DNA of 64,000 nt from Gammaproteobacteria bacterium (GCA_965230455.1 CBDDKY010000003.1:110948-174947); one strand, 5' to 3'. Numbered from the stretch's first letter, positions 2,551 through 62,668 are shown. Translations and numbers: made by a program. Notes: generated by a model not told the origin, from the sequence alone.

Positions 2551-4737
2551 TTAGCGAGAAGAGCCTGGCTGACAAATAATTATTTCTGACAAATCAGAGT
2601 CTTCCTCATCTGAATAAGCAGAGTCTTCACTATCAGATTCATTGTCACCAATACCATAGACGCTTGAAAGATTCCGATACATGGTTGAGCGACCTTGTAT
2701 TACTGCGGCAGTTCCAGCGGGATTATCAGCAAAATACTCCTCTTTCACCTCCGACTTGATAGCTGCCTGATTGAAAAGCGCATTAAGCCTGCAGAATTTT
2801 TCATCTATGACATCAAGATTATCTATGGTATTCCGGCCAGTGACTATGCCATAGCGAGCACGGTGAAGCTTTGCATCTCCTTTATAGCACTTACTTTCAC
2901 CCATAAAATCAGTGAAGCTTATTTTTTGGCCCATGAGCAATAACAAACTTCTTGCTTGTGCTACAGCGATAGGCAGTGAATCACTTTCGCTACCTTTCTT
3001 ATCATCATAGTCATGCACATTACCTTCTTCGTCTCGATAAAGACGAACCAACACCTCAACGATAGAAACTAAAAACAACCATGCATTCAACAAATGAACA
3101 GAACTTTGTTGCTTTTCACGAGCAGTTTTTTGCTCCTTTTTACCAGATAAGCTTTCAAATGAAGCATCTTCCTCCAATTTTATATTTCCATAATTATTGA
3201 CTTCATTCACATCAAAAGGAGATAGTTGATTAAGCTTTCCTCTCATCAGTGTTAGTAGCTTTTGCTTTCTATTGATGTTTGCTTTCTCCCAAGTAGCCCC
3301 CAATAAATATTGTATTCTAGCGATAAGGCCTGCACCATATTTCAAGTCATATTTAGAAGGGAATTCCATTTTGAAGTTTCCCATTTGCCTATATGTATAA
3401 GAGTTTTCTGTAGAAAATGTGATGTCCGTTACGCCTAGCCTAAAATTAATATTTGGCATTTGCTTATCTTTACTCAAGATTTTTGATAAGGCGATGAGAA
3501 AACTGCGTCGCACAAGCCCATCGACAACGAATGGTTGATTAGCATTATTAGCAAGATGCTCCCTAATCCGATTATAAATAGTATTTGACTGAGAGTTTGG
3601 CTTCATAGGGCGCCCCACTCTCAAAAATTTTTCAGTAACACGCCTTAACCACTTCCGCTCTACGCGTTGGGCTAAGTCTTTAGCTGGAATACCATAAGCT
3701 GCTCTGCCTTTATTATCTTGAAACTTAATTGTTTTTTCTAGATATTTGGATACATCTATTTTATCTGAAGCTAACATATTAGTGAGTTCGTCAACTGATG
3801 TCCCATCTGATTCGATACTAGATAGGTCTTCAGAAGGCTCATTTTTGACTTCTTTTGGAGTTAATTCATCTAGCCAATTTCCAAATATATTTACTTGTTT
3901 CATCAGCGCCTGTAGCACAGGCTTGAGCTCATTTATTTTAAGGCTTTTACTGTCTTTCAAACTACTGTCTACCCGGAGTAGCCATTGCTCAATAGCCGCT
4001 TTATTTTTAAAATTCTCTTTCTCTGCATTTCTATCAGTTATTCTAGCTAATTTGTACAGACTATTTATAAGCTTGCTTCGCTGTTCCTCTGTGATGAGAG
4101 CTCCATTCACTTCTTGAAATGCTGTTATATGTTTTGATAATATTTCAGCCATACTCTCCAGTGTATATACGGCAGCGGGAATGGTCTCTCCTGCTAGCAA
4201 TGCAAGGATGTGAGGATTATTGGTACGTTGTGCAATCTCTTGTGTTTTATCGTCGCTAGTCCGCCGATAGACTTCATGCATTTCTCCGTAGTGAGATGTG
4301 CATGCAAACATTCCACTACTATCATCTATTTGCCGCTGCTCTCGAACTGATTCTGTGCTTTTTAGTATTTCTTTATCAATACCAGCTTTCAATAGTTTAT
4401 CAACTGCACAGATGTTTTGACATTGGATTGCAATATGCAATAGAGTGCTGCGTGTTGTTGTCGTATACCAATTTTCATAAGAACTAGAGTCATGAGAGTC
4501 ATATTTTGTACCAATATCCAATGTGCTAATATCAAAATCAAATAGCTCAGGATTGATATCTTTTCCAGCAACAATAAGCTCTTTTGCTTGCACAAAGCTA
4601 ATCTTATTGGGAGTAGTAGAGCTTGCTACTATCTTTTCATCTATCTTACTGTTTGTTCTTTTCTTCTTTGAGTTTCCCATGATGATTCCTTCTTTGTTGC
4701 TGTCAACGTCAACTAAGCCTAAAGCTTCGTTAAGCAT
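2551..4737 (-). CDS. Large hypothetical protein (728 aa) with at least one ankyrin-like repeat; candidate secreted or host-interaction protein
   Basis: Long ORF. The motif TLLHIAIQCQNICAVDKLLKAGIDKE resembles an ankyrin repeat. No other recognisable domain; Ser/Asp/Glu-rich C-terminus. Confidence 0.45.
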   Translation of the reverse strand: MLNEALGLVDVDSNKEGIIMGNSKKKRTNSKIDEKIVASSTTPNKISFVQAKELIVAGKDINPELFDFDISTLDIGTKYDSHDSSSYENWYTTTTRSTLLHIAIQCQNICAVDKLLKAGIDKEILKSTESVREQRQIDDSSGMFACTSHYGEMHEVYRRTSDDKTQEIAQRTNNPHILALLAGETIPAAVYTLESMAEILSKHITAFQEVNGALITEEQRSKLINSLYKLARITDRNAEKENFKNKAAIEQWLLRVDSSLKDSKSLKINELKPVLQALMKQVNIFGNWLDELTPKEVKNEPSEDLSSIESDGTSVDELTNMLASDKIDVSKYLEKTIKFQDNKGRAAYGIPAKDLAQRVERKWLRRVTEKFLRVGRPMKPNSQSNTIYNRIREHLANNANQPFVVDGLVRRSFLIALSKILSKDKQMPNINFRLGVTDITFSTENSYTYRQMGNFKMEFPSKYDLKYGAGLIARIQYLLGATWEKANINRKQKLLTLMRGKLNQLSPFDVNEVNNYGNIKLEEDASFESLSGKKEQKTAREKQQSSVHLLNAWLFLVSIVEVLVRLYRDEEGNVHDYDDKKGSESDSLPIAVAQARSLLLLMGQKISFTDFMGESKCYKGDAKLHRARYGIVTGRNTIDNLDVIDEKFCRLNALFNQAAIKSEVKEEYFADNPAGTAAVIQGRSTMYRNLSSVYGIGDNESDSEDSAYSDEEDSDLSEIIICQPGSSR

Positions 4738-6307: not shown

Positions 6308-7561
6308 ATGCAAAGCAGAAAAATGTTTATTGACCTTTTGCCTTATAAACCATCGATCATTTTAACATGCAAGCATACTAAAAAAAGAGTCTTGCAGTTA
6401 GCTTATAAGTTATTAGCAGAAGTCATAGAGAGTATAGATGACTTCTACCGCGCTAGAAATTTTTCATGCTTTGACCCACATGTTGGTGAAAACTTATGCC
6501 AAATCAGAGCGTGTCAATTTTTTGCACTACTTCAAGACTATGAGAGTAATCAATTTATTGTTAAACAGTCCTATAGTAAAGAACGCCAACTGTGTAAAGC
6601 AAAGCTTTTAACACTTGAAGAGCTCTCACAGCAAGAAGCGAGTAATAATGAGCCAATAAATATTGTAGATTTTTTGGAAAGCTTTAAGCTAAATATTTCG
6701 CTCTCAGAGACTACTGCTTTTTTAACTATCTCTCATTTTTTGACTAAATTTAGAATTTTTAATGAGCATGAAAATACGGTGATAGACTATTCTTCACTTA
6801 TAGGCGATTGGCAAATTTCAAAGAATTTAGCCCGAAGAATGGTGCATGAATACCAAAAATATATTTCTGAGACTTCTTCTAAGTTTGTGGCAGCTAAACT
6901 GCCTGGGTGTCAGCAGCTTGATATTGATCCAGACATTTTGAGGTTATTAAATTTTCGAGATGATGATGGACGTTATACATCTCCCAACTTTTTAGCAACA
7001 GCAATTTTGTTGGACTATTTGATTAAGTTTAAAGTGAGTATTTTTTTATCTATAAGGAGTGATGCAGGTCATGAAATTATAGGACTTTTATTTGAGGTGA
7101 ACAAAAAATCATCAGGCTATGTTTTGTCTGAGGTAAATGGAAAAAGTAAACATTTGCCTTGTATTGTAATGAGTGCTATAACTAAAACCAGTATCAGAAG
7201 CCAGGTTGATAAAGCTCACTTTAGACAGTATTTACTTAATGTCGGCTTAATTAAAACTATTATGTTGAATATGGCTGGGCACCCCCAATATAGTGGTAAA
7301 AAATTGAGACCTATGGCAAATAACCCTTTTATTCCTCTAATTTCCAGTGGTAATACAAAAATATCAAGCAATGCCATATTGTTAAGCCAACATTTCCAAA
7401 AGTTGAAAACTCTTTCTACAGTAATTGGTTGTAAACAAAATGACTATCGACTGCTATGTATTAGACATATTTACTTTGATAACTTAGGCAACCAACTTAA
7501 TATGCTTAAAGATAATAAGTTTTACTCAGACATACTCAGTGAAATCACTGAAATAGCTTAG
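6308..7561 (+). CDS. Hypothetical protein (417 aa), no recognisable domain
   Basis: Long uninterrupted ORF, co-oriented and tightly spaced between 5999..6304 and the kinase gene at 7593. Confidence 0.5.
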   Translation: MQSRKMFIDLLPYKPSIILTCKHTKKRVLQLAYKLLAEVIESIDDFYRARNFSCFDPHVGENLCQIRACQFFALLQDYESNQFIVKQSYSKERQLCKAKLLTLEELSQQEASNNEPINIVDFLESFKLNISLSETTAFLTISHFLTKFRIFNEHENTVIDYSSLIGDWQISKNLARRMVHEYQKYISETSSKFVAAKLPGCQQLDIDPDILRLLNFRDDDGRYTSPNFLATAILLDYLIKFKVSIFLSIRSDAGHEIIGLLFEVNKKSSGYVLSEVNGKSKHLPCIVMSAITKTSIRSQVDKAHFRQYLLNVGLIKTIMLNMAGHPQYSGKKLRPMANNPFIPLISSGNTKISSNAILLSQHFQKLKTLSTVIGCKQNDYRLLCIRHIYFDNLGNQLNMLKDNKFYSDILSEITEIA

Positions 7562-7592: not shown

Positions 7593-9560
7593 ATGTTTAA
7601 ATGGATTTATTCAATGAAAAATTTATCAATTAATGATGCAAATAGTGTGCGCGAGTATTTTGAAAATATTATCGCTCTACTACCTGGGCATATTTTTTGG
7701 AAGGATTTAGAGTGCCGATTTTTAGGTTGTAACGACAAGCAAGCACAGATAGCAGGTCTTTCTTCTAGGCATGAAATTATCGGATTAAATTCTATAGATG
7801 TTATTTCTAAAAACCAACCTAAAGAGCTAAGAAAAAAACAAGCTATGGCAATTGATGCTATTGACATGAAAATCATGCGTAGCGGAATACCTGAAACCAT
7901 AGAAGAACCTTTTGTCACTGAAGAGGGAGAAGAAAGAATTTTCTTATCACAAAAAGTTCCTATAAAAGATAGCGAGGATAAAGTCATTGGGCTGCTAGGA
8001 ATAGCCATTGATATAACTGAACAAAAGAGAATGGAGAGAGAGCTCAGTAGAGCTCGAGACCAAGCTGAATTAGCCAACAAAGCTAAATCAGCTTTTTTAG
8101 CCAATATTAGTCATGATACACGAACACCATTATCTGGCATCATTACTTTGTCAGAAGCTATGATGAAGGATTCTAAGTTACTAACAATAGAGAATATCAT
8201 ACATATTAATAAGTCTAGTCAATCATTGCTTGACATGATGAATAAAGTGTTAGACTTTATTCGTATAGAGTCACCAGATTTTAGGGAGCTACAAAAAGCA
8301 GAGTTATTTTCTATATCACAATTAGTTGATGATGTTTTTTCTCTGTATAGGCCAAGTTTTAATACTAAGAAAATAAAGTTCAAAATAAACATTGCCAAGA
8401 ATATGCCACCTTGCCTTTTCAGTAAACCTTTTTTTATTTATAAGATATTTGTTAATCTTATTGGTAATGCTCTCAAATTCACTGAGAAAGGGTATGTCTC
8501 GCTTGATGTTTGGCTAAAAGGGCGTAAGTTTTGTTTTTCTATAACAGATACGGGGTCCGGAATTCCAGATAAAGAAAAAGCAAAGATTTTTGAATGGTTT
8601 GAAAAATTAAATCCATCTTACAAAAGCACTCTTGATGGGATGGGGCTTGGCTTAGCCTTAGTTAAAACAGCTTTAGAAGACTTAAATGGCAACATTCAAG
8701 TGCTGGATAACAAGGATGGAGGGACTATTTTTTCTGGCGAGATTCCTATTGAAATACCTTCTTCAGTTGATAAGAAAAATACTGATATTCCCCCCATTGG
8801 AAGTAGTAGACTACAACAAAATAATACTTTTAAAGAAATAAAGCTTGAATCAAAAAAGTATATTTTGCTTGTAGAAGATAGTGAAATAGCTGGTATGGCC
8901 GCTAAACTGGTTTTAGAGCAAGTAGGATTTGTTGTGGACTGGGTTAAAACAGGGCAAGATGGCTTAGCTGCTATCTTGGCTGGAAAGTATAATATGTTCA
9001 TATTAGATATAGGCTTACCTGATATGGCTGGTGATGAGGTAATAGTTCAAGCAAGGATAGCTGGTACTAAAGAGCCTGCTTATGCTTTAACAGGGCATGC
9101 TGACATAGATAGGGAGGAGTTAATAGCTAAAGGATTTACCGAGGTTATGGTTAAGCCATTGGATATCAAAAGCTTTTTAGATTTTATAAAGGAAAACGAT
9201 GATGAATTTGAACTAGGGAAAAGTGACATAAAAATAGTTGATTTAAATTTAGGTGAAAATTTTGGTTTTGATAAAAGACAAGCAAAAGAAATATTAGCCA
9301 CCTTTATTGCAGGTTTAGATATTGATGTGCAAGACTTAAAAAAAGCCATTGAAAAAACAGATATAAAAAAATTACAAAATATTTTACATCGTATAAAGGG
9401 TGGCGCTAGTTATGCTTGTGTACCCAAGTTAGATACAGAATTGAAAATAGCACATTCTGCAATAAAAGCGGGTGATGTCCTAAATTTGGAAGAACTATTT
9501 AATCCACTTTTTTTAGCCATTGAGGAGTTAATAGAAGTATTTGAGAAGGGCTCCTTCTGA
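7593..9560 (+). CDS. Hybrid sensor histidine kinase (PAS - HisKA - HATPase - receiver - HPt)
   Basis: H-box ISHDTRTPLSGII. N/G boxes LIGNALKFT and DTGSGIPDKEKAKIFEWF. Receiver ILLVEDSEIAG...FILDIGLPDMAG. C-terminal HPt HRIKGGASYACVPKL. Confidence 0.85.
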   Translation: MFKWIYSMKNLSINDANSVREYFENIIALLPGHIFWKDLECRFLGCNDKQAQIAGLSSRHEIIGLNSIDVISKNQPKELRKKQAMAIDAIDMKIMRSGIPETIEEPFVTEEGEERIFLSQKVPIKDSEDKVIGLLGIAIDITEQKRMERELSRARDQAELANKAKSAFLANISHDTRTPLSGIITLSEAMMKDSKLLTIENIIHINKSSQSLLDMMNKVLDFIRIESPDFRELQKAELFSISQLVDDVFSLYRPSFNTKKIKFKINIAKNMPPCLFSKPFFIYKIFVNLIGNALKFTEKGYVSLDVWLKGRKFCFSITDTGSGIPDKEKAKIFEWFEKLNPSYKSTLDGMGLGLALVKTALEDLNGNIQVLDNKDGGTIFSGEIPIEIPSSVDKKNTDIPPIGSSRLQQNNTFKEIKLESKKYILLVEDSEIAGMAAKLVLEQVGFVVDWVKTGQDGLAAILAGKYNMFILDIGLPDMAGDEVIVQARIAGTKEPAYALTGHADIDREELIAKGFTEVMVKPLDIKSFLDFIKENDDEFELGKSDIKIVDLNLGENFGFDKRQAKEILATFIAGLDIDVQDLKKAIEKTDIKKLQNILHRIKGGASYACVPKLDTELKIAHSAIKAGDVLNLEELFNPLFLAIEELIEVFEKGSF

Positions 9561-9618
9561 TTAAATGTAAAAGCCAAAACTTAATCTGACAATCAGTAGT
9601 TATCAGGCAGGTTGCTTG

Positions 9619-10166
9619 TCAGTTAACTGTTGGATATTTTTCATGCTCACAAAGCGTCGCGCTCTGTGAGTCTTGATTCTTATGCGCGTCATCGGATAGC
9701 GCGATGCTGCCTGCGCCTGTTGTACCACCGCTCGGTGATACAACATTCTCGGCCAGCTCAAATAAAGTATCAAGCTGTTTCTCACGTGCTAACGGTTTAG
9801 CCTCTAAAAAAGTTTGCCAAGGTGTTTTACCATAGCAGTACTTGCCAGAATGCGGGCGAAACTCATTATATTGCTTTAACCAGTTACTCACATCTTGCTG
9901 CAACTCATCCACGCTTTGATAAACCTTTTTCCTAAAAGCAACATCATAAAACTCTTGCTTCATGGTACGATGAAACCGTTCACAAATCCCATTGGTCTGC
10001 GGAGAGCGGGCCTTTGTCTTGCTATGGTCAATATTTTCAATGGCTATAAAAAGCTGATAGGCATGCTCTTGCACTTTACCACAATATTCAGTCCCTCTGT
10101 CGGTTAAAATACGGAGTAAATCAACACCCTGCTCTTGAAACCAAGGAACAACGGTTTCATTCAGCA
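9619..10166 (-). pseudogene. IS481-family transposase, C-terminal integrase-core fragment, truncated by the IS630 insertion at 10167
   Basis: LRILTDRGTEYCG...KARSPQTNGICERFHRTMKQEF is the conserved DDE E-region of IS481-type transposases. The reading frame runs straight into the IS630 left end at 10167. Confidence 0.7.
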
Positions 10167-20872: not shown

Positions 20873-22453
20873 ATGAAATCAAAGACAAAAAAAGAAAAAA
20901 CAACCAACGCCGCACTCTTGCAGCGCGTTCAATCGCTTGAAGAAAAACTTAAAAAATCTGACGAACAATTAAAAAAAATTGACGACAAATACCAGCGCCT
21001 ACTTGAACATTATAACCTTCTAAAGCATTTTCGCTTTGCCCGTAAAACAGAAAAAAATAGCCAACAGTTAGGACTATTCGATGAAGCAGGGATTAGCTTA
21101 GAAACCGACAACCCGCCTGAAGACAAAAAAGCCGCTGCAACACCCAAACAAAATGCCAAACCCAAAAAACGAGGTAAGCGTAAACCATTACCTACGGATT
21201 TGCCCCGTGAAGATATCATCGTTGATGTCAGTGACGCAGAAAAGAATTGTGATTGCTGTGGCAAACAACGCCCCTGTCTTGGTGAAGAAACCACTGAAAA
21301 GTTAGACATTGAACCCATTAAGATTAAAGTCATTTGCTACCGCCGCCCTAAATATGGCAATTGTTGCGAAGATAAAACAAATGGCCATGAAGGCGTGCTC
21401 ACCGCCAAGTTGCCCAATCTTTTTTTACCTAAATCGATTGCAGCCCCAGGATTGGCCGCACAGATTATCACGTCAAAATTTGAAGACCACCTGCCACTCT
21501 ATCGACAAACCGCCATTTGGAAACGTTACCACGTTGATTTAAGTCGCGCAACGCTTGGTAGGATTGTGATTAATAGCATGGCACACTGTCAGCCTTTGTA
21601 TGAATTGCTCAAAGAAAAAATTCTCAATCAATCCTATACGCAAGTAGATGAAACCCCACTTAAGATACTTAAGAAAAATAAACAAGCTTACATGTGGGTG
21701 TATGCCGCCGGCCCACCTGATAAAAGAACCATCGTTTTTGATTATCAGCCCTCACGTTCGGGCCAACACGCCAAGGATTTCTTGGAAGGCTTCAAGGGCC
21801 ATGTGCAATGTGATGGTTACAGCGGTTATCATTGGCTAGCTAACAGCACCAACATGAGTCGCGGCGGTTGCATGGCGCACGCCCGGCGCAAATTCCATGA
21901 CGTGTTAAAAATCAGCAAAGCCGAAGGACTGGCGCAACAAGCCATGGACATTATTGGCAGGCTGTACGACATTGAAAAAATAGCCAGAGAAAACGCATAC
22001 AGCGAACAACAGCGTTACCAACTACGTCAAGAAAAAGCGCTGCCGATTATTGAAGAATTAAAAACCTTCTTGGACACAAACAAAGACAAAGTACCGCCAC
22101 GTCATAAGCTAGGTGAAGCCTTTACCTACGCACTGAACCAATGGCAATATTTGGTTGCGTATTTAGATAACGGTGCTTATGAAATCGATAACAATATCGT
22201 GGAAAACCTTATTAGACCCTTTGCCATTGGCCGAAAAAACTGGCTATTCCACGGTAGTGACGAAGGCGCCAAAGCCGGCGCCATGTGTTACAGCTTAATT
22301 GCCACCGCCAAAGCCCACGGCCTGGAACCCTTTGCTTATCTTAATTATGTCTTTAACCACATCGCTCAATGCCAGAGCCGTGATGACATTGAAAAACTGC
22401 TGCCACACAATCTAACCACCGACATCATCACCCCAGCGGTCTCTAACAATTAA
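20873..22453 (+). CDS. tnpC: IS66 family transposase TnpC
   Basis: 526 aa with a leucine-zipper N-terminus, a CxxC zinc-ribbon (CDCCGKQ...CYRRPKYGNCC) and a DDE domain. Confidence 0.85.
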   Translation: MKSKTKKEKTTNAALLQRVQSLEEKLKKSDEQLKKIDDKYQRLLEHYNLLKHFRFARKTEKNSQQLGLFDEAGISLETDNPPEDKKAAATPKQNAKPKKRGKRKPLPTDLPREDIIVDVSDAEKNCDCCGKQRPCLGEETTEKLDIEPIKIKVICYRRPKYGNCCEDKTNGHEGVLTAKLPNLFLPKSIAAPGLAAQIITSKFEDHLPLYRQTAIWKRYHVDLSRATLGRIVINSMAHCQPLYELLKEKILNQSYTQVDETPLKILKKNKQAYMWVYAAGPPDKRTIVFDYQPSRSGQHAKDFLEGFKGHVQCDGYSGYHWLANSTNMSRGGCMAHARRKFHDVLKISKAEGLAQQAMDIIGRLYDIEKIARENAYSEQQRYQLRQEKALPIIEELKTFLDTNKDKVPPRHKLGEAFTYALNQWQYLVAYLDNGAYEIDNNIVENLIRPFAIGRKNWLFHGSDEGAKAGAMCYSLIATAKAHGLEPFAYLNYVFNHIAQCQSRDDIEKLLPHNLTTDIITPAVSNN

Positions 22454-25561: not shown

Positions 25562-25678
25562 CAAATTAAAACCTGGTAATGTCCTACTTTCACATGGGGA
25601 AACCCCACACTATCATCGGCGCTGAGTAGTTTCACTTCTGAGGTCGAAATGGGGTCAGGTGGGACCTACTCGCTATGA
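25562..25678 (-). rRNA. rrf: 5S ribosomal RNA
   Basis: Reverse complement matches 5S consensus (..cctggtgatcatagcgagtaggtcccacctgaccccatttcgacctcagaagtgaaac..gccgatgatagtgtggggtttccccatgtgaaagtaggacattaccaggt). Confidence 0.85.
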
Positions 25679-25769
25679 TCACCAGGAAAATCATTAACAC
25701 AAAAACTACAAACTTCTTCATTTCTCAATACAACTCGACAATAACCCAACATATACTCAACTATATGGT

Positions 25770-28672
<2,903 letters not shown>

Positions 28673-28924
28673 TCTTGACCATATAATTCAATATACGTTC
28701 CCTCTGGCCCTTTTAAACCAGAGACTAGAAATTATTCTCTTCGTCATACTTCGTTACTTGGAAACCCATTTGAACACACTTCTCAGTATGCACAACGGTA
28801 CTCGTGTTTCCAAGCTTAACGCTTGTAGTTTTTGTGTCCTAATTTTTAATGAGCTAATCACAAAAAGTGATAAAAAAATCAGCTTGGCTGACTTTTTTAT
28901 GACTTCTTTTCAAATATCCAGATG

Positions 28925-29000
28925 TGGTGGAGCTAGGCGGGATCGAACCGCCGACCCCCTGCGTGCAAAGCAGGTGCTCTCCCAGCTGAGCTACAGCCCC
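28925..29000 (-). tRNA. tRNA-Ala (UGC) in the 16S-23S spacer
   Basis: Reverse complement GGGGCTGTAGCTCAGCTGGGAGAGCACCTGCTTTGCACGCAGGGGGTCGGCGGTTCGATCCCGCCTAGCTCCACCA. Confidence 0.9.
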
Positions 29001-29022
29001 ATTTCTCGATAAATCAACAAAC

Positions 29023-29046
29023 AATCTGTGTGGGCCCAAGGTCACG
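29023..29046 (-). other. 16S processing stem, 3-prime half (pairs with 30938..30960); likely RNase III site
   Basis: caatctgtgtgggcccaaggtcac is complementary to accttgggcccacacagattgtc, and the two halves flank the 16S. Confidence 0.55.
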
Positions 29047-29237
29047 AACCTATTGATAAGTCATCTTTTTGTCCAAATACTTCGTTAAATTATTAGCTCC
29101 GCTGATCATGTATTAATATACACTCCTCCGCTTGCTAACAATTTGCCTCGTCTTTGAACAAAATTCTCTAACTCTCAACAGCTCCGTTAGAACCACCGCC
29201 AAAGATTGGTTATTCTCTAGCATAACTAGCAATAACT

Positions 29238-30782
<1,545 letters not shown>

Positions 30783-31009
30783 TATGTTGTTAAGTTCGAC
30801 CCTAAGCAATCAGTCTGCACTGTTTGCTTAAGTTAATCTTTACATCAGGCTTCTCTAGCTGAAAAACATGACGCAAGACTGTTTTTTTAGGTTTCTCTTT
30901 GACGGTGGTCCCAATTTACTGCCTAAACAGCTTTAACCTTGGGCCCACACAGATTGTCTATTTTCTCGTTGTTAAGGAACTCTGCTTACCGCTTTCTGCG
31001 GCAAGGACG

Positions 31010-48365: not shown

Positions 48366-48426
48366 TCCGTTGAGGATATGTTGACCCGTTATATCGATTC
48401 TGTTGCACCCGGACATTGTAATGATA
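48366..48426 (+). repeat. Orphan 61-bp internal fragment of the hcp gene (duplicate of 48869..48928)
   Basis: ccgttgaggatatgttgacccgttatatcgattctgttgcacccggacattgtaatgata versus the hcp segment ccgttgagggtatgttgacc..gtaatgata. Flanks are unrelated. Confidence 0.8.
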
Positions 48427-48428
48427 AA

Positions 48429-48681
48429 GTCTTGGGCCAACTTGCTGCAAAGTGCTGAAATCAAGAACTTTCGTTGGCATGATATGCGACATGATTTTGC
48501 CAGCAATCTAATTATGAAAGGCATTGACCTCTATACGGTCTCAAAGCTGCTGGGTCATGCCAGCATTAAAACTACTGAGCGCTATGCACATTTAGCTGAA
48601 GGCCATGTCGCTAATGCTGTTGAAATCTTGTCTGAAGATTACGCAACAGTTTACCGAAAGACAGTAAAGTTGGCGCCATAA
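48429..48681 (+). pseudogene. Tyrosine recombinase (phage-type integrase) C-terminal catalytic fragment
   Basis: WHDMRHDFASNLIMKGIDLYTVSKLLGHASIKTTERYAHL carries the H-x-x-R box and catalytic Y of Int-family recombinases. The N-terminal ~300 aa are missing. Confidence 0.65.
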
Positions 48682-48789: not shown

Positions 48790-49272
48790 ATGAGTATTTA
48801 TATGACCATTGCAGACGTCACTGGCAGCGTTAGTCGAACAGGCCACGAAGGCGCTATTCAACTGGAATCCGTTGAGGGTATGTTGACCCGTTATATCGAT
48901 TCTGTTGCACCCGGACATTGTAATGATAGGGATTTATCACTGCCCATTCACAGTGAAATAACCATCACCAAATCACCCGATAGCTCCTTCATCCCCTTGT
49001 ATAAAGCTGCTCACGATGGCCACGTCTATCCCCTGGTTAAGATTGACTTTACTCGCACCGGTAAACAACAAGCAGAAAGCTACATGACCTATGAATTGAG
49101 TAATGTCCTTATCGGTGGTTATCGCATACTGACAGAAGGCGCTCATCCGCTTGAAGTCATCCAGCTCAATTATACCCAAATAGAAAAACGCTTCATCAGC
49201 TCCAATGCCAATCACAGTGTAGGCACACCAAGCTCCATGCTCTATAACCTAGAAACTGGCGTGGCAAGCTAA
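48790..49272 (+). CDS. hcp: Hcp-family protein (T6SS tube-protein fold)
   Basis: 160 aa. Collinear with Hcp1 as recalled: MSIYMTIADVTGSV ~ MAVDMFIKIGDVKGES. ITITKSPDSSFIPLYKAAHDGHVYPLVKIDFTR ~ LSFTKYIDKSTPNLMMACSSGKHYPQAKLTIRK. YMTYELSNVLIGGYRI ~ EYLIITLKEVLVSSVS. EVIQLNYTQIEKRF ~ ENVTLNFAQVQVDY. Confidence 0.6.
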   Translation: MSIYMTIADVTGSVSRTGHEGAIQLESVEGMLTRYIDSVAPGHCNDRDLSLPIHSEITITKSPDSSFIPLYKAAHDGHVYPLVKIDFTRTGKQQAESYMTYELSNVLIGGYRILTEGAHPLEVIQLNYTQIEKRFISSNANHSVGTPSSMLYNLETGVAS

Positions 49273-49320
49273 ACCCTCTTCAATAACTGACGGGCACACC
49301 AAGCGCCAAGCGAGACGAGT

Positions 49321-50448
49321 ATGTTACATTTAACGGATGAAAAAGATGATTTAGAATCCGTGTGTCGGTATCGTTACCAGACACACGCCCACCGGGAATT
49401 GCGGGATTACATGGGACGTGTGCTGGATGCCAATCCCGATAAACGCGCTTTTGTGGGAGGCAGCCGCCCTAGTGCTCATCAAGGCTATATTCCGCTCACG
49501 CCCAATACCTTTATTTGGTTACCGAACAAGGATGTGGACAGCGTCGACCCCTTTGTGGCCCAAGACTACCAAACTGCCTGTATCCATATGAATTATTCAT
49601 CGCCCATGAAACGCTTTAAATTTAGGCGCTTACTCAAAAATACCCGGATTGATTTAGCCTTAGCCGCAAGCCAGGCGCGGGTGCATATTGAACAAGCATC
49701 CCTCTATTTGCATCATGCCGCTAACAAAGCAGTCAATGATTTGCATCATGCCGCTAACAAAGCGGTCAATGAGCTGAAAGCCTATGAAACAGAAGAGAAA
49801 GCCTCTGTTTGGAGCTCTGTCGACCACAGTCTTGAGCACATCGGTAAAGAAGCCCGTGAGCTCCATGAGGCTATTAGCGAATTTACTAAAGGCTTGTTTG
49901 AGTTTTCAGCCTACCTTGATAGCGCAACAGAGGCAGAGCTTAAAGAGCATATCAGTGCTTCTTATGCCCGAATGATTAGAAAATATACCGCATCCATGCG
50001 CGTCGCTGGCCGCTATGCCAAAGCTAGCACCCGTCTTATCATCAGTCGCAACCTTTTTCATGCCTATGACTCTGTGAATGAAGGCCCTTTTTGGGAAACC
50101 TCCCCTTTCTCGCTGGATCATTTAACCAAAATTATGCGCTATACCAAAAGCATCACCCGCGGTATGCTGGTTGTTGAATTGGCCAGTGATTTTTATGAGG
50201 TTTATAAAACTTATGAGGAGCACGGTGATTGGGGCAAGAAGCTTATTGACATCGGCGCGGAAATAGTCGGGGGAATAGCATTTACTGGGCTTGCTGCGTT
50301 GCTACTACCAGAGACCCTGGTGGGTGCTGTGATTGCCGGGGCAATTGGTGGGGTTGCTGGTGTTAAAGCCGGTAAATTTACTGATAGAATAGATTTCAAG
50401 CAGATTTTGGCCACTCATGTACAGGAAAGCCACCCATGGATACGTTAA
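49321..50448 (+). CDS. Candidate polymorphic toxin/effector: helical N-terminal region plus glycine-zipper membrane C-terminal tip
   Basis: 375 aa, no known domain. Contains a 33-nt in-frame tandem duplication (LHHAANKAVND/E x2). C-terminal ~75 aa after the EEHGDWGKK junction (IDIGAEIVGGIAFTGLAALLLPETLVGAVIAGAIGGVAGV) is duplicated twice downstream as start-less fragments. Its stop overlaps the start of the immunity-like gene. Confidence 0.5.
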   Translation: MLHLTDEKDDLESVCRYRYQTHAHRELRDYMGRVLDANPDKRAFVGGSRPSAHQGYIPLTPNTFIWLPNKDVDSVDPFVAQDYQTACIHMNYSSPMKRFKFRRLLKNTRIDLALAASQARVHIEQASLYLHHAANKAVNDLHHAANKAVNELKAYETEEKASVWSSVDHSLEHIGKEARELHEAISEFTKGLFEFSAYLDSATEAELKEHISASYARMIRKYTASMRVAGRYAKASTRLIISRNLFHAYDSVNEGPFWETSPFSLDHLTKIMRYTKSITRGMLVVELASDFYEVYKTYEEHGDWGKKLIDIGAEIVGGIAFTGLAALLLPETLVGAVIAGAIGGVAGVKAGKFTDRIDFKQILATHVQESHPWIR

Positions 50449-50840
50449 TTGAATTGACCAATTGGCTACAATTCCTCACCTTACCACTACTCGGCATTAC
50501 TGCCATTCTGATGCCTTATATCTTTTTTTCAGTGAGACGGCGCTTCGACCCATTATTTGGCAATGTGAGTGGTTCGAAGGGGGAAATGTTCCATCCCATG
50601 CAAAGAGCCATGGGTTACTCTCTTTGCTTGGCGGCCCCCTGGTGGGCTATTAGAAATAAATACATGGTTAAGCTGTATCAAGGCTATGATTTCAGAGCCG
50701 ATAGCACGAAATTTCAGATCACCCTGGCGTGGATATTCTCCTACTCTACCTTTCTTTCCTTTGTTTTTTTATTCACTTCGATAGGCATTCGCTACTGTCT
50801 AGGCCTGCCAACCGAGGGAATGATAAGCCCATCCCACTGA
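50436..50840 (+). CDS. Putative immunity protein 1 (134-aa membrane protein)
   Basis: ATG overlaps the toxin stop (ccATGgatacgtTAA). 3 predicted TMs. First of three 85-90 percent identical paralogs. Confidence 0.5.
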   Translation: MDTLIELTNWLQFLTLPLLGITAILMPYIFFSVRRRFDPLFGNVSGSKGEMFHPMQRAMGYSLCLAAPWWAIRNKYMVKLYQGYDFRADSTKFQITLAWIFSYSTFLSFVFLFTSIGIRYCLGLPTEGMISPSH

Positions 50841-51072
50841 AGAGCACGGTGATTGGGGTAAGAAGCTCATTGACATCGGCGCGGAAATAGCCGGGGGAAT
50901 AGTTGCAACTGGGCTTGCTGCGTTGCTACTGCCAGAGACCCTGGTGGGCGCCGTGATTGCCGGGGCAATTGGTGGGGTTGGTGGTGTTGAACTCAGTAAA
51001 CAGGTTGATAAAATAGATTTCAAGCAGATTTTGGCCACTCATGTACAGGAAAGCCACCCATGGATACGCTAA
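50839..51072 (+). pseudogene. Orphan toxin C-terminal fragment 1 (no start codon)
   Basis: Frame opens after tga taa and encodes ..TEEHGDWGKKLIDIGAEIAGGIVATGLAALLLPETLVGAVIAGAIGGVGGVELSKQVDKIDFKQILATHVQESHPWIR, homologous to toxin residues ~299-375. Confidence 0.7.
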
Positions 51073-51464
51073 TTGAATTAACTAATTGGTTATTATTCCT
51101 TGTCTTCCTACTATTCGGCATTACTGTCATCCTGATGCCTTATATCTTTTTTTCAATGAGACGGCGCTTCGACCCTTTATTTGGTAATGTGAGTGGCGCA
51201 AAGGGGGAAATGTTTCATCCCATGCAAAGAGCCATGGGTTATGCCCTTTGTTTAGCCGCCCCCTGGTGGGCCGCTAGAAATAAATACATACTCAAACTAT
51301 ATCAAGGCTATGATTTCAGGGCCAATAGTACGAAACTTCAGATCACCCTGGCGTGGATATTCTCCTACTCTACCTTTCTTTCCTTTGTTTTTTTATTCAC
51401 TTCGATAGGCATTCGCTACTGTCTAGGCCTGCCAACCGAGGGAATGATAAGCCCATCCCACTGA
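51060..51464 (+). CDS. Putative immunity protein 2
   Basis: Paralog of 50436..50840. Start overlaps the orphan fragment stop in the same coupled arrangement. Confidence 0.5.
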   Translation: MDTLIELTNWLLFLVFLLFGITVILMPYIFFSMRRRFDPLFGNVSGAKGEMFHPMQRAMGYALCLAAPWWAARNKYILKLYQGYDFRANSTKLQITLAWIFSYSTFLSFVFLFTSIGIRYCLGLPTEGMISPSH

Positions 51465-51696
51465 AGAGCACGGTGATTGGGGTAAGAAGCTCATTGACAT
51501 CGGTGCGGAAATAGCCGGGGGAATAGTTGCAACTGGGATTGCTGCGTTTCTACTGCCAGAAACCCTGGTGGGCGCTGTGATTGCCGGGGCAATTGGTGGG
51601 GTTGCTGGTGTTAAAGCCGGTAAATTTACTGATAGAATAGATTTTAAGCAGATTTTAGCCACTCATGTACAGGAAAGCCACCCATGGATACGTTAA
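51463..51696 (+). pseudogene. Orphan toxin C-terminal fragment 2 (no start codon)
   Basis: ..EEHGDWGKKLIDIGAEIAGGIVATGIAAFLLPETLVGAVIAGAIGGVAGVKAGKFTDRIDFKQILATHVQESHPWIR. Closer to the full-length toxin tip than fragment 1 is. Confidence 0.7.
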
Positions 51697-52088
51697 TTGA
51701 ATTGACCAATTGGCTACAATTCCTCACCTTACCACTACTCGGCATTGCTGTCATCCTGATGCCTTATATCTTTTTTTCAGTGAGACGGCGCTTCGACCCA
51801 TTATTTGGCAATGTAAGTGGATCGATGAATGAAATGTTTCATCCCATGCAAAGAGCCATGGGCTATGCCTTTTGTTTGGCGGCCCCCTGGTGGGCCGTTA
51901 GACATAAATACACCTTTAAGCTCTATAAAGGCTATGATTTCAGGGCTAATAGTACGAAACTTCAGATCACTTTGGCGTGGATATTTTCCTACTCTGCCTT
52001 TCTTTTTACTGTTTTTTTATTCACTTCGATAGGTATTCGCTACTGTCTAGGCCTGCCAACCGAGGGAATGATAAACCCATCCCACTAA
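51684..52088 (+). CDS. Putative immunity protein 3
   Basis: Third paralog; the most divergent (AVRHKYTFKLYKGYDF..). Confidence 0.5.
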   Translation: MDTLIELTNWLQFLTLPLLGIAVILMPYIFFSVRRRFDPLFGNVSGSMNEMFHPMQRAMGYAFCLAAPWWAVRHKYTFKLYKGYDFRANSTKLQITLAWIFSYSAFLFTVFLFTSIGIRYCLGLPTEGMINPSH

Positions 52089-52214
52089 TCAATATCACTC
52101 AATAAAACTACAAAGCCGCAGCATTATACTGCGGCCTGGGTGTTATAGTTCTTCATCTGATTTAAAAGGATCTTGAGGCATAATTTTATGTCTTGCAAGC
52201 CATTCATCTAAATC

Positions 52215-53872: not shown

Positions 53873-54994
53873 ATAGTCCCCGCAGTTGAAACCTCGGGTT
53901 TTTGTAGTAAAATAGTCTAATAGAAAAATTTAGGACATGGTTGTGCTAGAGTATAAATTATCAGAACGAGAATTAATCGAATTAAAATCTCGCCATCAAG
54001 GTAGTAAAAAACGTAAAGAAGCTGATCGCTTAAAAGCGGTGTATTTGCTAGGTAGTGGCTGGAAAATATCAGCAGTAAGAGAAGCCTTACTCTTAAGCGA
54101 AGATACAATACGGGGTTATTATAATAATTACAAGCAAGAGGGGCTGGATGGTTTATTGAAAAGTAAATATTCTGGACGGCAGTCAGAAATGACAAGCTCG
54201 GAAAAAGAAGCTTTATTTTTACATCTTGAATCAGTAACCTATCAACGTGTATCTGATATTATTTTATACGTTGCCAAAGAGTTTGATATTGTCTATTCAG
54301 ATAGCGGTATGCGCTTGATATTGAAAGAGCTAGGTTTTGTTTATAAAAAACCAGAGAAAATTCCCTACAAGGTGAACAAACAGTCCCAAGAAGCATTTAT
54401 TAAGGCTTATAAGTCTCTCAAGAATACTGTAGATAAAGAAGATGGCCTTTATTTTATGGATGCAACGCATCCTGAGCACAATGCTGTCCCTGCGCATGGC
54501 TGGATGAAAAAAGGTGAGCGCATAGTCATGAAGTCAAACCCACAACCAAGACGTTTAAACATTAATGGTGCGATTAATATAGACAGTTTAGATATGGTTG
54601 TTAGATTTGAGGAGCGTTTAAATAAAGAAACAACAAAAGATTTTTTAGAATCTTTACGGAAACATCAGCCAAAAGGTTATATTTATTTAATATGTGACAA
54701 TGCAGGTTATTACCAATCTCCAGAGGTACAAAGTTTAGCTGAGGCGATGGCGATTAAATTAATATTTTTACCAGCCTACTCACCAAATTTAAACTTAATA
54801 GAGCGAGTATGGAAGTTTTTTAAGAAAAAAGTACTGTACAATAAGTACTATGAAGAATTTGAAGAAATGGAAAAGGCTTGTAAAAAATTCTTTAGGCATA
54901 TTTCTTATTATAAAGAAGAGCTGTCATCATTGATGACAGAAAACTTTCAAGTTATAGAGATTTAAAACCCGAATTTCATACTGCACTGACTATA
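53873..54994 (+). mobile_element. IS630-family insertion sequence, copy 3 (tnp 53937..54965; protein identical to copy 2)
   Basis: Same IRs (tatagtccccgcagttgaaacctcgggttttt / aaaacccgaatttcatactgcactgactata). Confidence 0.85.
53937..54965 (+). CDS. IS630 family transposase
   Basis: 342 aa, identical to 11353..12381. Confidence 0.85.
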   Translation: MVVLEYKLSERELIELKSRHQGSKKRKEADRLKAVYLLGSGWKISAVREALLLSEDTIRGYYNNYKQEGLDGLLKSKYSGRQSEMTSSEKEALFLHLESVTYQRVSDIILYVAKEFDIVYSDSGMRLILKELGFVYKKPEKIPYKVNKQSQEAFIKAYKSLKNTVDKEDGLYFMDATHPEHNAVPAHGWMKKGERIVMKSNPQPRRLNINGAINIDSLDMVVRFEERLNKETTKDFLESLRKHQPKGYIYLICDNAGYYQSPEVQSLAEAMAIKLIFLPAYSPNLNLIERVWKFFKKKVLYNKYYEEFEEMEKACKKFFRHISYYKEELSSLMTENFQVIEI

Positions 54995-57639: not shown

Positions 57640-60564
57640 TGGTGAGTAAGCCGACGGAACCTCCCCATCGGCTTCTCGCAGAACCGGACGTGACAGTCTC
57701 CCGTCATCCGGCTCCCATCAGGCAAACGCACCTCGCATACCTGCTCGCCAGTGTACAAATAAGTGGGGTTCCTTCTCTGCTATATTTTCCAGAAACCTTG
57801 ATGCCCACGTTTTACGATGTCGGAATCGTTTGTATTTCCTCATCGCCCAAGCTACTAACGTTTTATTAAAGTGACGCCAAACCGGATATAGAGCCGATCG
57901 TTGATACTGCCCATAGTAATATAGCCACCCGCTCAATACGGGGTTATATCTCTTTGCAATATCATTGAGGCTTAAATCTGCTCTGTTACGCCAATTGAAT
58001 TTCTTAGTTGTCGCCCGCATCGATTTTAATGCCGCTTTACTAACCGCAGGAGTAAAACTAACAAACAGACTATTGCGTTTGCTGTTCTTTACTAATCGCG
58101 GCCTGAACGTATATCCCAAAAAATCAAATGATGTTTGGTGATACTTGCCCTTGCGGCTCCCATCTTTGCAGTAGACTATCTTTGTTTTATCAGGATGTAG
58201 TTCCAATCCACACTCTGTAAATCGTCTCGTTAACGCAGACAATAGTGCCTGCGCTTCTTGTTCTGTTCTACAGTGTGCTAATCCATCATCTGCGTAGCGG
58301 CACCAGGGGGTTGCTTCATAATTTCGTTGCATCCAATGGTCATAAACATAGTGTAAAAATAGGTTGCTTAACACCGGACCAATCAGAGACCCTTGTGGAA
58401 CACCGGAGATACGCTCTTGTAGCTTACCATCCGGCAATTGCATCGGGGCAACTAGCCAGCGTCTTATATACAACTTCACCCATTTGCACTGTATACGCTG
58501 TGCTCAACTTTTTGAAGGGATAAAAAATAATCAGATAAATCCTTGAGCAAAGACATAACTCTCTGATAGATTAAGATTTTTTGCGAAACCACTTGATCAA
58601 GGAGAGAGTCATGTCCGAAGGAGAGTTTATCATTTCTGTGTATTGTTGGGTAGCTGCTATTTATGAGCAAATAGTTGGCAATATTAAATTAAGACCACGG
58701 GGTTTTCCCCCAAAACTCAGCGCTCCCGAGTTAATCACAATGGAATTGGTGGGTGAGTTTCTTGGAAAAGACAGTGACAAAGCGATTTGGTACTATTTCA
58801 AAACCCACTGGTCTCACTATTTTCCAACGCTGGGTTCTCGTAGCAATTTTGCAAAACAGTCTGCAAATTTGTGGCATGTTAAACAATTAATTCATCAGCA
58901 CCTGCTGAGCACATTGCAACTAAAAAAAGTGTCCACGCATTTGATTGATGGTTTTCCTATACCTGTTTGTCATTACGCGAGGAGCAAACGTCATCGATTA
59001 TTTAACACGACAGCAGCCTTTGGTTATTGTGCATCAAAAGACGAAAAGTACTATGGATTTAAGGGTAATTTGTTAACGACAGACGCGGGACTCATTGTTA
59101 ATTTTACCTTAACGGCCGCGAATGTTGACGAGCGTACTTCATTATTTGATGTTATCGATGGCATTGAAAATAATTTATTAGGTGACATGGGATTTATTGG
59201 TGAAGACTTACAACAAGAGCTAGCTGAAAATTTTCATATTCACTTGCAAACACCCAAACGAAAAAATATGTTTGATGACCGAGACAAACAATTTCTAAAA
59301 CATATGAAAGACAAACGTCGTCTTATTGAAACGGTTATTGGTCAACTTGTTGAGCGATTTTCAATAACAAAAATCAGAGCCCGAGACCTTTGGCATTTGA
59401 CGAATCGTATAGGGAGAAAATTGCTGGCCCATACCGTCACCGCCATTATTAACATGAACAACAGGAATAAAACTATTCAGTTTGATGGCCTTATTGGGGC
59501 GTAAAGTTGAGCACGGCGTACTGTATATGTTTCTCTACCGCTTTCATCAGCAGTTCATGAGATAAGTTGTCGAATAATCCCTTAATATCAAACTCTAAGA
59601 CCCAATTGTATTGCCAGCAACGTTTCCTGGTAATACCTATCGCGTCTAGCGCTGATTTGTTAGGCCGGTAACCATAAGAATCAGGTAAAAAGTACTTTTC
59701 TACCTGCGGTTCAAAAACCAGCTTAACCACGGCTTGACATATCCGATCGCTAACCGTGGGGACTCCGAGGATCCTTACACCTCCTGCTTTCTTCGGGATA
59801 GGCACTGCTTTCACCGGTGGTGGAAAATAACACCCCGATGACATCCGATTCCAAAGTTTATAAAGATTGTCTTTGAGATTTCTTTCAAAATCTCTTATCG
59901 ACTCTTGGTCAACACCAGCCACTCCAGCATTCGCCTTTACCTGTTTATAGGCTTGGACAAATAACTGTTTCGGTATATTAAATGGTTTTGTCTTTTCCAA
60001 TATTTCCTCCTGAAAAAAAATCAGTTGAATATTAAAATTAACTACCTGACGCAACCCCTTCGCTCCACTGCCATTACAGCAGTTTCATCACTACTACGAG
60101 TTGCCCCGCCCCAGTGCTTTGCATCGGTACTCTGGCTCTCATGGTTTCGCCCATTTGAGTTTCTCCCTTAGCATCAAAACGACTGGTTCCCGCAGTTCCC
60201 TGTAAAAGCCTAGATCAGTCTCATGCCATCTATACGCCGGACACCGTTCACCCAATAACCAGATAACCGATGAACTTATCCCAGGGTATGGAAACGCCCC
60301 TGGTTTTGATGCCTCGTCTCTGGATTACGACGCGTCAACAATGGTTCAGGTCTATTCGTCTTTCTGATCCTCACCTGCCGGACTAAAGTCCGCGCTTTAC
60401 TTCAACGCTGATGACCACCACTCTTAATAGCAGCCACTTGAAGTGGTTTGAAACCCGCTTCTGGAAGCCGATTTCGGAGAGCCTTCCTCCATCTTTCACA
60501 GAGCTTATCCATAAGTTCTTAGTTCATCTTCATTCAGAACCTCCTTCTTATGTGCCTGCGGCAC
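57640..60564 (-). mobile_element. Group II intron inserted in an ISAs1 transposase gene, itself disrupted by an IS982 element
   Basis: Domain V-like gagccggatgacgggagactgtcacgtccggttc at ~57650-57690 (minus). RT/maturase ORF in two pieces (59491..60054 N-terminal RT, 57718..58479 C-terminal RT plus X domain with YADDG). Boundaries inferred from restoring the ISAs1 frame HWRVES|SLHW; 5-prime end GUGCCG.., 3-prime end ..CAC. Confidence 0.65.
58488..59529 (+). mobile_element. IS982-family insertion sequence inside the intron RT gene (tnp 58581..59504)
   Basis: 307-aa DDE transposase of IS982 length and type. IRs gtatacgctgtgctcaacttt / aaagttgagcacggcgtactgtatat. Confidence 0.6.
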
Positions 60565-61559: not shown

Positions 61560-62668
61560 TGTCATAGGACTTACGCATTGACAACGGCATCATTTTTTGA
61601 ACGGGCGTTGATGTATTCACGAATGACTTTGACATATAATTCCTTCTTCACCTGATACCAATGTGAAATTTCCTTGTTTAACCGCATAAATTCTAGCTTC
61701 ACATAAGCCTTTATGGCGCAAATATGATTTTTTATAGGATTTTCGTTACGTACTTGAAAGCGTTCAACGTTACACACTTGTTTAATGGCACGATGAAATC
61801 TCTCTATATTCCAGTGCGCATCATGTACTCTAGTGAAATCAACCTTCGTGATACTTTCCAGGTTAGCACGCTCAAATGTGCTCATGATATAATAGCGATA
61901 TGATTTTTTGTATATCTGTCTAAATATCTTCACCATGCCATAATCCTTTAAGTAAAGTGTTGCAGAATCATCAGATGACCAGCCTTCAAATTTTTGTATT
62001 TGAATGTACTCACCACGCGTTTCTGAAATGACACGGTTGCTTTCAATCCCAAACATGAAATTTAGGTTTTGCTTACGAATAAACTTTAAATTGTTCAAGC
62101 TTGAATACCAGCTATCGCCAGTTACCCAGGCGGGCTTTAGTCCCCAAGACAGCACCTCTAGCAGCATGTCTTTAAAATAATCATTCTTAGTTTTACCCAC
62201 TTTCTTATTAACAAGTCTGAAATTAACCGGCACAGAAACACCTTTTATATCAGTGTAAAATAGCGTTATTAAATTTATTCCTTTGACAGACCGTTTATGC
62301 TTCCCAGACCAAAACCAATCTATAAATACAGCCTTGCTTGGGTCACTATAAGGCTTATCCAGCACTGAATCATCAACACTGAGTACGCCGCCTGTTAATT
62401 CAATTTTATTTTTTTCTTCATCATATAAATCTTTTGGCTCAAATCGTTCGCGTGCTAAAAATCGGTTTACGCTATCGTGCGAAACAGTTTCCATAATATC
62501 CCCCAGCCGTGTACAACTTGTGTATTGCGGGTCGCTAAGTAGATAGGAAATGTAAATATCTTCGTTACAACGCGCCGTTGATGGCTTCTTTTTGAGCAGC
62601 ACACCCACCTCCTTGCAAAAAGGAGGCATTTTAACAGAATATTGTCAATGCGTAAGTCCTATGTCAAT
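61560..62668 (-). mobile_element. IS element with 25-bp terminal inverted repeats and an IS4/IS701-like DDE transposase (61571..62629)
   Basis: IRs tgtcataggacttacgcattgacaa (61560) and ttgtcaatgcgtaagtcctatgtca (62643). 352-aa transposase with a C-terminal HWNIERFHRAIKQ motif. Confidence 0.6.

Follow-up and report, generated by a model that had tools for sequence, protein, structure and literature searches.

VasX of Vibrio cholerae and TpeX (PA5265) of Pseudomonas aeruginosa are colicin-like pore-forming effectors of type VI secretion systems (T6SS), whose inner-membrane immunity proteins are TsiV2 and TpiX. Tse4, Ssp6 and Ssp4 are, by description, small cargo effectors that act on the inner membrane from the periplasm; their genes often lie apart from the main T6SS cluster, in some cases next to hcp, and among their immunity proteins Sip4 is integral to the membrane. 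Ssp4 is reported to lack any convincing homologue with a known function or structure, and its immunity protein has four transmembrane (TM) helices. Orphan arrays of toxin tips and immunity genes are known for Rhs proteins, for contact-dependent inhibition (CDI; CdiA-CT/CdiI) and for the T6SS auxiliary clusters of V. cholerae. Colicin-like T6SS effectors, small Hcp-carried pore formers and orphan tip/immunity arrays are each already established. Here we analysed a stretch of 64,000 nucleotides from a Gammaproteobacteria bacterium (GCA_965230455.1, CBDDKY010000003.1:110948-174947; hereafter the window), in which positions 48790-52088 carry an hcp gene, a toxin gene and three immunity genes, two of the latter preceded by start-less copies of the C-terminal tip of the toxin. 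The locus is probably an hcp-effector-immunity island encoding an antibacterial, membrane-depolarising toxin of a rare and uncharacterised family. What appears to be new is a rare unannotated family combining LysM-like and colicin-like parts with a dedicated hcp, a swapped cassette made of a sub-domain (the hairpin) and its membrane immunity protein, and the presence of such a system in a prophage as well as in little-known gammaproteobacteria that are probably host-associated.

The locus contains five full-length open reading frames (ORFs), all intact and arranged head to tail on the plus strand. The first, hcp (48790-49272), encodes a 160-aa protein that is a divergent T6SS tube/effector-carrier protein, colinear with the Hcps of five related loci. 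A preliminary description of this DNA, made from the sequence without database searches, had assigned an Hcp fold to this gene, and the assignment was borne out by a match to Pfam T6SS_HCP (PF05638; E=4.9e-23, 82.3 bits against a cut-off of 23.5, profile positions 1-126 of 129) and by 4w64_A, an Hcp1-family protein and the nearest solved chain (E=4.6e-5). The NCBIfam tube-protein model TIGR03344 was missed, with 41.4 bits against a curated cut-off of 58.9, which indicates a divergent Hcp; such divergence is common among effector-dedicated orphan Hcps. The toxin gene follows at 49321-50448 and encodes a protein of 375 aa and 42.3 kDa; by family searches and alignments, its N-terminal part (about aa 1-68) is LysM-like, its middle is helical and its C-terminal part is colicin-like. 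The hydrophobic C-terminal tip of this protein and the overlapping 134-aa gene behind it were both found as first described: immunity gene 1 (50436-50840) starts 13 nt before the end of the toxin gene, and family alignments, hydropathy and a structure model make its product an inner-membrane protein.

The 624-bp unit whose two further copies had been noticed at 50839-51462 and 51463-52086 was confirmed, and is present three times in exact register (50215-50838, 50839-51462 and 51463-52086) with pairwise identities of 89-91%. It extends from codon 299 of the toxin gene, at the sequence EEHGDW, to the stop codon of immunity gene 1. The junction motif GAGCACGGTGATTGGGG.AAGAAGCT occurs three times, against none expected, and the array escaped Tandem Repeats Finder solely because the longest period covered by that program was 500. 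Unit 1 opens with tip 1 (50215-50448), the expressed tip, which comprises the EEHGDW junction, a glycine-zipper hydrophobic hairpin and a terminal helix. Unit 2 consists of orphan tip 2 (50839-51072) and immunity gene 2 (51060-51464; 134 aa, 90% identical to immunity 1), and unit 3 of orphan tip 3 (51463-51696) and immunity gene 3 (51684-52088; 134 aa, 87% identical to immunity 1). Both orphan tips lie in the toxin frame, are preceded by stop codons and are open over 77 codons, with no ATG, GTG or TTG ahead of the hydrophobic segment, so that the start-less toxin fragments and diverged immunity paralogs proposed at the outset are indeed present. Each of the three immunity genes has its own ATG with the Shine-Dalgarno sequence AGGAAAG ahead of it. 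A programmed frameshift from the immunity frame into the orphan tip was considered and rejected, as only four codons remain past the last stop and there is no slippery site.

The three units differ at 90 of 624 sites, and the differences are not evenly mixed. The variable sites fall in blocks in which the odd-one-out copy changes from block to block, giving 34 runs of site patterns where 62.9 were expected (P<5e-5; none of 20,000 permutations gave as few runs). The 3′-terminal 95 nt or so are identical between units 1 and 2, and other blocks pair units 1 and 3 or units 2 and 3. This mosaic structure points to recombination between the units. Under neutral decay, synonymous and non-synonymous differences are expected at a ratio of about 1:3, whereas in pairwise comparison of the tips they were about equally frequent (7:10, 9:5 and 6:9 codons), so that free decay of the start-less tips does not fit. 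The 12 variable tip positions are placed five in the first helix of the hairpin and seven just past the second. Outside the window, an annotated 62-aa protein (P0015) was observed to be a fragment of a toxin resembling P0004, starting about 16 residues before the junction and ending inside the hairpin; further orphan or truncated tips thus exist elsewhere.

The position at which the units begin is also the position at which related toxins diverge. Two toxins from one gammaproteobacterial metagenome-assembled genome (MAG) are 94% identical up to the sequence GKNW and 55% identical after it, with Hcps that are 96% identical and immunity proteins that are 60% identical. Among the other toxin paralogues of the window genome, identity is 96-98% before the junction and 34-54% after it. 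Pooled over the two lineages, the values are 94-98% before against 34-55% after, and identity is 60-77% between the immunity paralogues, as against 96% between the Hcps. Such a sharp break between a conserved N-terminal and a variable C-terminal part, at the same G(D/N)W motif in two lineages, is, as read from these alignments, the signature of a polymorphic toxin; together with the mosaic units it upholds the polymorphic-toxin architecture that had been suggested for the locus.

Relatives of the toxin are few. A word-indexed search of 5.8 billion proteins returned only the window toxin and two 365-aa proteins of the same 1.52-Mb contig, and a fourth paralogue was found in the cluster of one of the 365-aa proteins; the same genome thus holds three further full-length toxin paralogues, together with three further immunity paralogues. 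The 134-aa protein likewise had only same-genome relatives in the word-indexed search, six in all. With a profile of the paralogues, HMMER recovered 22 proteins at E<=0.001 from 1.84 billion cluster representatives, nearly all of 340-378 aa, and a further word-indexed protein search with the family alignment gave at least five proteins. Remote relatives of the scaffold, which had been described simply as non-Rhs, are detectable after all. The core of the family alignment reads ...GRG...EVYExYKxGGDWxKE..., followed by a Gly/Ala-rich hydrophobic stretch and then ...LTPxGWV..., so that the EEHGDW junction of the window toxin is a conserved family motif. None of the family members matches any Pfam family convincingly, the window toxin has no NCBIfam match near threshold, and neither a genome-collection scan with the toxin alignment nor a tblastn search of plasmids with the window toxin found anything. 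A match of NCBIfam NudE (17.8 bits against a cut-off of 169) and a weak match of PADLOC LeoBC over the helical region (E=0.0014) were both judged to be noise.

Among the loci of relatives, L001 belongs to a 1.45-Mb genome with genes for a Ceg14-type Dot/Icm effector and for an ankyrin protein, the former of which marks it as Legionellales-like. The two loci of the MAG mentioned above (L027 and L028) share a small ORF of 94-124 aa upstream of hcp (4913-5287 in L027, 5504-5788 in L028) with the motif KLIDE.LELP.Y....IA.EL...IY.G.TKKP and no Pfam match, which may encode a dedicated regulator. In L004, three tandem immunity paralogues follow the toxin gene (1733-2915), with 67-71% nucleotide identity, a spacing of 400-465 nt and no toxin-tip fragments, and a 65-aa ORF end that borders hcp on its upstream side bears a weak resemblance to the TssG C-terminus (E=0.0018). 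In L002, a 28-kb metagenomic contig, hcp, the toxin homologue P0012 and a gene for a 136-aa membrane protein form a trio (8877-11869) in a P2-like prophage that also encodes terminase, portal, capsid, baseplate J/I, fibre and sheath proteins; the trio is located between a gpV-like spike gene and a gp25/gpW-like baseplate gene.

Comparison of the family profile with 177,635 PDB sequences placed colicin N first (E=0.027 with the full-length profile, E=0.013 with that of the C-terminal part). The 21 PDB matches listed also included colicins B, S4 and A, and all four colicins were colinear with the query. The colicin pore domain is a ten-helix bundle around a buried hydrophobic hairpin of helices 8 and 9 (H8-H9) (PMC2585860). 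When the C-terminal profile of the toxin was aligned by hhalign with eleven colicin pore domains taken from plasmid records, the probability was 93.3% and the score 52 over 91 columns, whereas the 42 controls (reversed, 20 column-shuffled and 20 block-shuffled) reached at most a score of 27.9 and a probability of 13.8%. The core of the similarity is at 50095-50376 on the plus strand (toxin aa 259-352) and corresponds to colicin helices 5-10 approximately; in it the G(D/N)W of the toxin aligns on the invariant colicin TGNW, and the Gly/Ala-rich hairpin that follows (toxin aa 308-351) on colicin helices 8-9. Remote homology of the C-terminal part of the toxin to the colicin pore domain is thus probable. 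We stop short of assigning it to the colicin family, because of the failure of the Pfam Colicin model and the poor AlphaFold2 (AF2) model of the toxin, both described below. The earlier statement that the protein has no recognisable domains therefore holds for Pfam and NCBIfam and fails for profile methods, and the guess that the toxin targets membranes or forms pores has gained strength.

Since the G(D/N)W motif aligns to the TGNW that precedes the colicin hairpin, the repeated tip would correspond to the hairpin and the last helix, and not to the whole toxin domain. The 77-aa tip would make up about one third of a putative channel domain of some 200 aa, and as part of that domain it is unlikely to be toxic alone. 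What had been called an orphan toxin tip is accordingly a genuine repeated piece of 77 aa, and not a self-contained toxin domain. At the other end of the toxin, the first 70 residues or so show the LysM-like pattern TEPGD(T/S)...IA...N...LP, and the two best PDB matches of the N-terminal profile are both LysM folds, P2 tail protein X (2ltf, E=0.41) and a LysM endopeptidase (4uz2, E=0.6). No Pfam LysM match was obtained for this N-terminus, and its LysM-like character is only suggestive.

By hydropathy, the 134-aa protein has strong hydrophobic segments at residues 11-34 and 95-124 and a middle segment that is only weak (KD15 maximum 1.19); its central loop is basic and conserved. It had been presented as a 3-TM protein; its nature as a membrane protein stands, and the third TM segment is uncertain because of the weakness of the middle one. 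The density of variable positions in the 134-aa proteins is somewhat higher in the hydrophobic segments (0.56-0.57) than in the loop (0.40). AF2 modelled the protein with a predicted local distance difference test score (pLDDT) of 73.5, and the protein has no Pfam match. Homology to colicin immunity proteins was considered and rejected, as hhalign gave a probability of 0.2% against both the E1 type (3 TM) and the A type (4 TM). The reading of the downstream gene as an immunity gene is supported by a homologous small membrane protein downstream of the toxin gene in the four other loci compared (L001-L004), with the shared motifs RRFDPLF, R..GY and LYxGYDFR.

The Hcp linkage first noticed in the window also proved to be a property of the family. 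In eight of nine independent loci (the window, L002, L003, L004/L029, L005, L008, L027 and L028) hcp lies directly upstream of the toxin homologue; a genome-collection scan with an alignment of four Hcps found one MAG only. Tse3, of 44.4 kDa, is delivered by Hcp1 (PMC8262886), so the toxin, at 42.3 kDa, is in the known range of Hcp cargo. From this we infer delivery of the toxin by a T6SS, and dependence on a T6SS stays at that level because the window contains no T6SS core gene.

Compared with VasX and TpeX, the system is alike in being linked to T6SS, in having colicin-like hydrophobic helices in the toxic C-terminal part and in having a membrane immunity gene immediately downstream. VasX and TpeX, however, are MIX-class proteins of about 1085 aa that contain a PH domain; their genes follow vgrG, and VgrG is their supposed carrier. 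Members of this family, in contrast, have 340-378 aa and a LysM-like N-terminus and are encoded directly after hcp. The immunity proteins of VasX and TpeX have four hydrophobic segments, against two to three in the 118-162 aa proteins found here, and no sequence match links the two groups. With the pore-forming colicins (N, A, B, S4, E1 and Ia; PF01024) the toxin shares profile similarity over helices 5-10 approximately, the TGNW-type motif and the H8-H9 hairpin, and in both cases immunity comes from a small inner-membrane protein. Unlike colicins, the toxin lacks domains for receptor binding and translocation, there is no accompanying lysis gene, toxin and immunity genes overlap on one strand whereas the immunity gene of colicins is convergent, the Pfam model misses the toxin, and the immunity protein is unrelated to the E1 or A type. 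Tse4, Ssp6 and Ssp4 resemble the toxin by description as small cargo effectors of the inner membrane, but orphan tip arrays have not been reported for them. Such arrays of Rhs, CDI and V. cholerae have in common with this locus a constant N-terminal part, a sharp junction at a motif, start-less C-terminal fragments each with an immunity gene, and evidence of recombination. They differ in that the carrier here is a 300-aa scaffold that is neither Rhs nor CdiA, and that the swapped piece would be about one third of one colicin-like pore domain (hairpin and last helix) and not an autonomous toxin domain.

We propose that the Hcp ring would bind and stabilise the toxin, and that a T6SS encoded elsewhere would fire it into the periplasm of bacterial neighbours, where the hairpin would insert in the inner membrane and the domain would open an ion channel and dissipate the membrane potential, as do pore-forming colicins and VasX/TpeX. 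In A-type colicins, the hairpin region determines recognition by immunity proteins inside the membrane, and the placing of the 12 tip differences in and just past the hairpin is in keeping with such a role. The immunity protein of this locus may similarly block the channel by intramembrane helix-helix contact with the hairpin; if such contact determines immunity, the orphan units could be specificity cassettes that change which immunity protein the toxin answers to. Homologous recombination from the near-identical junction to the conserved 3′ end of the immunity gene would put another hairpin behind the constant scaffold, and the retained, co-transcribed immunity genes, each with its own ribosome-binding site, would protect against relatives with other tips.

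Several findings weigh against this proposal. The three tips differ at just 12 of 77 residues, so that distinct immunity specificities are conjectural. Even with the cut-off relaxed to E<=10, the Pfam Colicin model (PF01024) matches none of the 21-23 family members, and each HMMER E-value against a colicin is marginal by itself; for the toxin, an AF2 model built from an alignment of four sequences is all-helical, has a pLDDT of 40 and is too poor for use, so that the ten-helix fold is only putative. The immunity protein has no similarity to E1-type or A-type colicin immunity proteins, and a Foldseek search of its model against the PDB gave nothing below E=1. As to delivery, no T6SS core gene (TssA-M, VgrG or PAAR) was found in the 64-kb window or within 6 kb of the two MAG loci, the Legionellales-like L001 is the sole locus of the nine without hcp alongside the toxin homologue, and the nearest external relative, that of L002, is inside the tail module of a P2-like prophage. 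Finally, gene fragments flank the island in a genome ridden with insertion sequences (ISs), and the island could therefore be decaying.

The prophage location leads to an alternative in which a phage or another mobile element carries the locus as its cargo and no T6SS is involved. The Hcp-like protein would be a tail-tube-type carrier, the pore-former would be delivered via a contractile tail or act as a bacteriocin or ejection protein, and the small membrane protein would be a superinfection-exclusion or self-protection factor. Besides the L002 trio between gpV and gpW, this would account for the match of the L002 Hcp to a PHROG family of phage proteins, for P2 tail protein X with its LysM fold as the best PDB match of the family N-terminus (E=0.41), for the integrase fragment that abuts hcp in the window, and for the lack of T6SS genes seen in the window or near the MAG loci. 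However, just one of the nine loci is in a phage, a scan of 2.9 million viral contigs with the Hcp and toxin alignments and a tblastn search of 50,697 phage genomes with P0012 returned nothing, and the toxin and immunity protein have no PHROG match (four toxin-family members scanned). The Hcps also score far above the T6SS Hcp family threshold, the weak TssG-like ORF end is found just upstream of hcp in L004, and prophage-borne T6SS effector modules are an ordinary travel route of such cargo; we consider this alternative unlikely. An improbable reading of similar weight in our judgement is that a former effector island lies stranded and unused in an IS-ridden, reduced genome, the units being duplication leftovers with no switching role. 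An hcp relic, the integrase fragment and a transposase fragment directly upstream would fit such a relic, as would the IS elements (at least five IS630 copies, IS66, IS701 and IS4) and group II intron of the window, a private in-frame duplication of 33 nt in the toxin gene and the absence of T6SS genes nearby. Yet all five full-length ORFs are intact, both start-less tips are open over 77 codons despite a nucleotide divergence of about 10%, the ratio of synonymous to non-synonymous differences is about even where neutral decay would give about 1:3, and the same genome has kept the three additional full-length toxin and three additional immunity paralogues.

That the toxin is aimed at the membranes of a eukaryotic host and not at rival bacteria seems very unlikely to us. 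The genome does look host-associated, being IS-dense and having a source contig of 1.52 Mb, a relative (L001) lies in the Legionellales-like genome with the Ceg14-type Dot/Icm effector and ankyrin protein, and VasX is reported to be active on both bacteria and eukaryotes; against this, tightly coupled and co-varying membrane immunity, immunity arrays and polymorphic tips are hallmarks of toxins used by bacteria against bacteria. As tandem repeats are a known weak point of assembly, an artefactual array was also considered. No specific support for it was found, the differences between copies form mosaic clusters that leave the reading frames undisturbed, and with 90 of 624 sites differing each copy can be placed uniquely, which makes an artefact hardly credible. 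An hcp-effector-immunity island with an antibacterial pore-former thus remains our preferred explanation. A bolder version of it combines two ideas: the cell would carry a stock of alternative channel hairpins (H8-H10), together with intramembrane immunity proteins to match, and re-tip one constant colicin-like domain by recombination at G(D/N)W, and the gpX/LysM-like N-terminus would be a 'tube-lumen address' for both T6SS Hcp and P2-type tails, so that the pair could be fired by either. The position of the trio between gpV and gpW in L002 is a hint of such an address, and we regard the combined version as distinctly unlikely.

If the preferred explanation is right, the locus represents a new and rare family of Hcp-linked pore-forming toxins with a channel domain distantly related to that of colicins. 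It would also provide a natural experiment on immunity specificity, as the units differ only in the membrane hairpin and the membrane immunity protein, and the residues of intramembrane toxin-immunity recognition might be read from 12 toxin and 24 immunity substitutions; for the pore-forming colicins this is a long-standing question, as yet poorly answered. The use of orphan modules known from Rhs and CDI systems would be extended to part of a domain in place of a whole domain, and such weaponry would be placed in obscure, apparently host-associated gammaproteobacteria and on a prophage.

The ends of the island bear traces of mobile elements. Directly upstream of hcp, positions 48403-48681 on the plus strand encode the C-terminal fragment of a phage-type integrase (Pfam Phage_integrase, E=1.4e-14, profile positions 113-170 of 172 only), which marks the boundary of a mobile element. 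An hcp relic of 61 nt (48366-48426, plus strand) is located between this fragment and an IS4-like transposase; 60 of its 61 bases match 48868-48928 (hcp codons 27-47 approximately), 502 nt downstream, and the Hcp alignment identifies the segment as native to Hcp. The relic appears to be all that is left of a second hcp gene, or of an island end that was rearranged. The transposase itself is a C-terminal fragment on the minus strand (48054 to about 48365) that abuts the relic. The private duplication in the toxin gene is an in-frame tandem duplication of 33 nt at 49706-49771 (HHAANKAVN[D/E]L twice), which is not present in the three same-genome paralogues. In a search for internal promoters, promoter-like sites were no commoner than in shuffled sequence (7 versus 7.5). 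A G+C-rich hairpin, not assigned to a strand, lies directly after the last immunity gene (52113-52137); it is scored as a terminator on the minus strand only, and is possibly the end of the operon.

Elsewhere in the window, three large ORFs of 728, 417 and 347 aa (2551-4737, minus strand; 6308-7561, plus strand; 16133-17176, minus strand) have no Pfam or NCBIfam match and could be lineage-specific, encoding for example host-interaction proteins. In the 16S rRNA gene of the window (30080-30200, minus strand), the stretch around E. coli position 641 has more than 3 mismatches to the published FISH probe for Ca. Centrionella anaeramoebae, a Legionellales symbiont rich in IS elements and with a partial T6SS that includes Hcp; this organism was therefore rejected as the source of the DNA. 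Five ORFs of 342 aa were found at 10232-11260, 11353-12381, 17312-18340, 18381-19409 and 53937-54965, forming two adjacent pairs and a single copy; by its Pfam match the first is an IS630-type DDE_3 transposase, and from their identical length the remaining four are taken to be copies of it. Other mobile elements are IS66 (20873-22453), IS701 (61571-62629), IS4 fragments, a Mu-like transposase (539-1672) and a split group II intron (57641-60490). The window as a whole is an unusually IS-dense chromosome region adjoining an rRNA operon (25571-30789).

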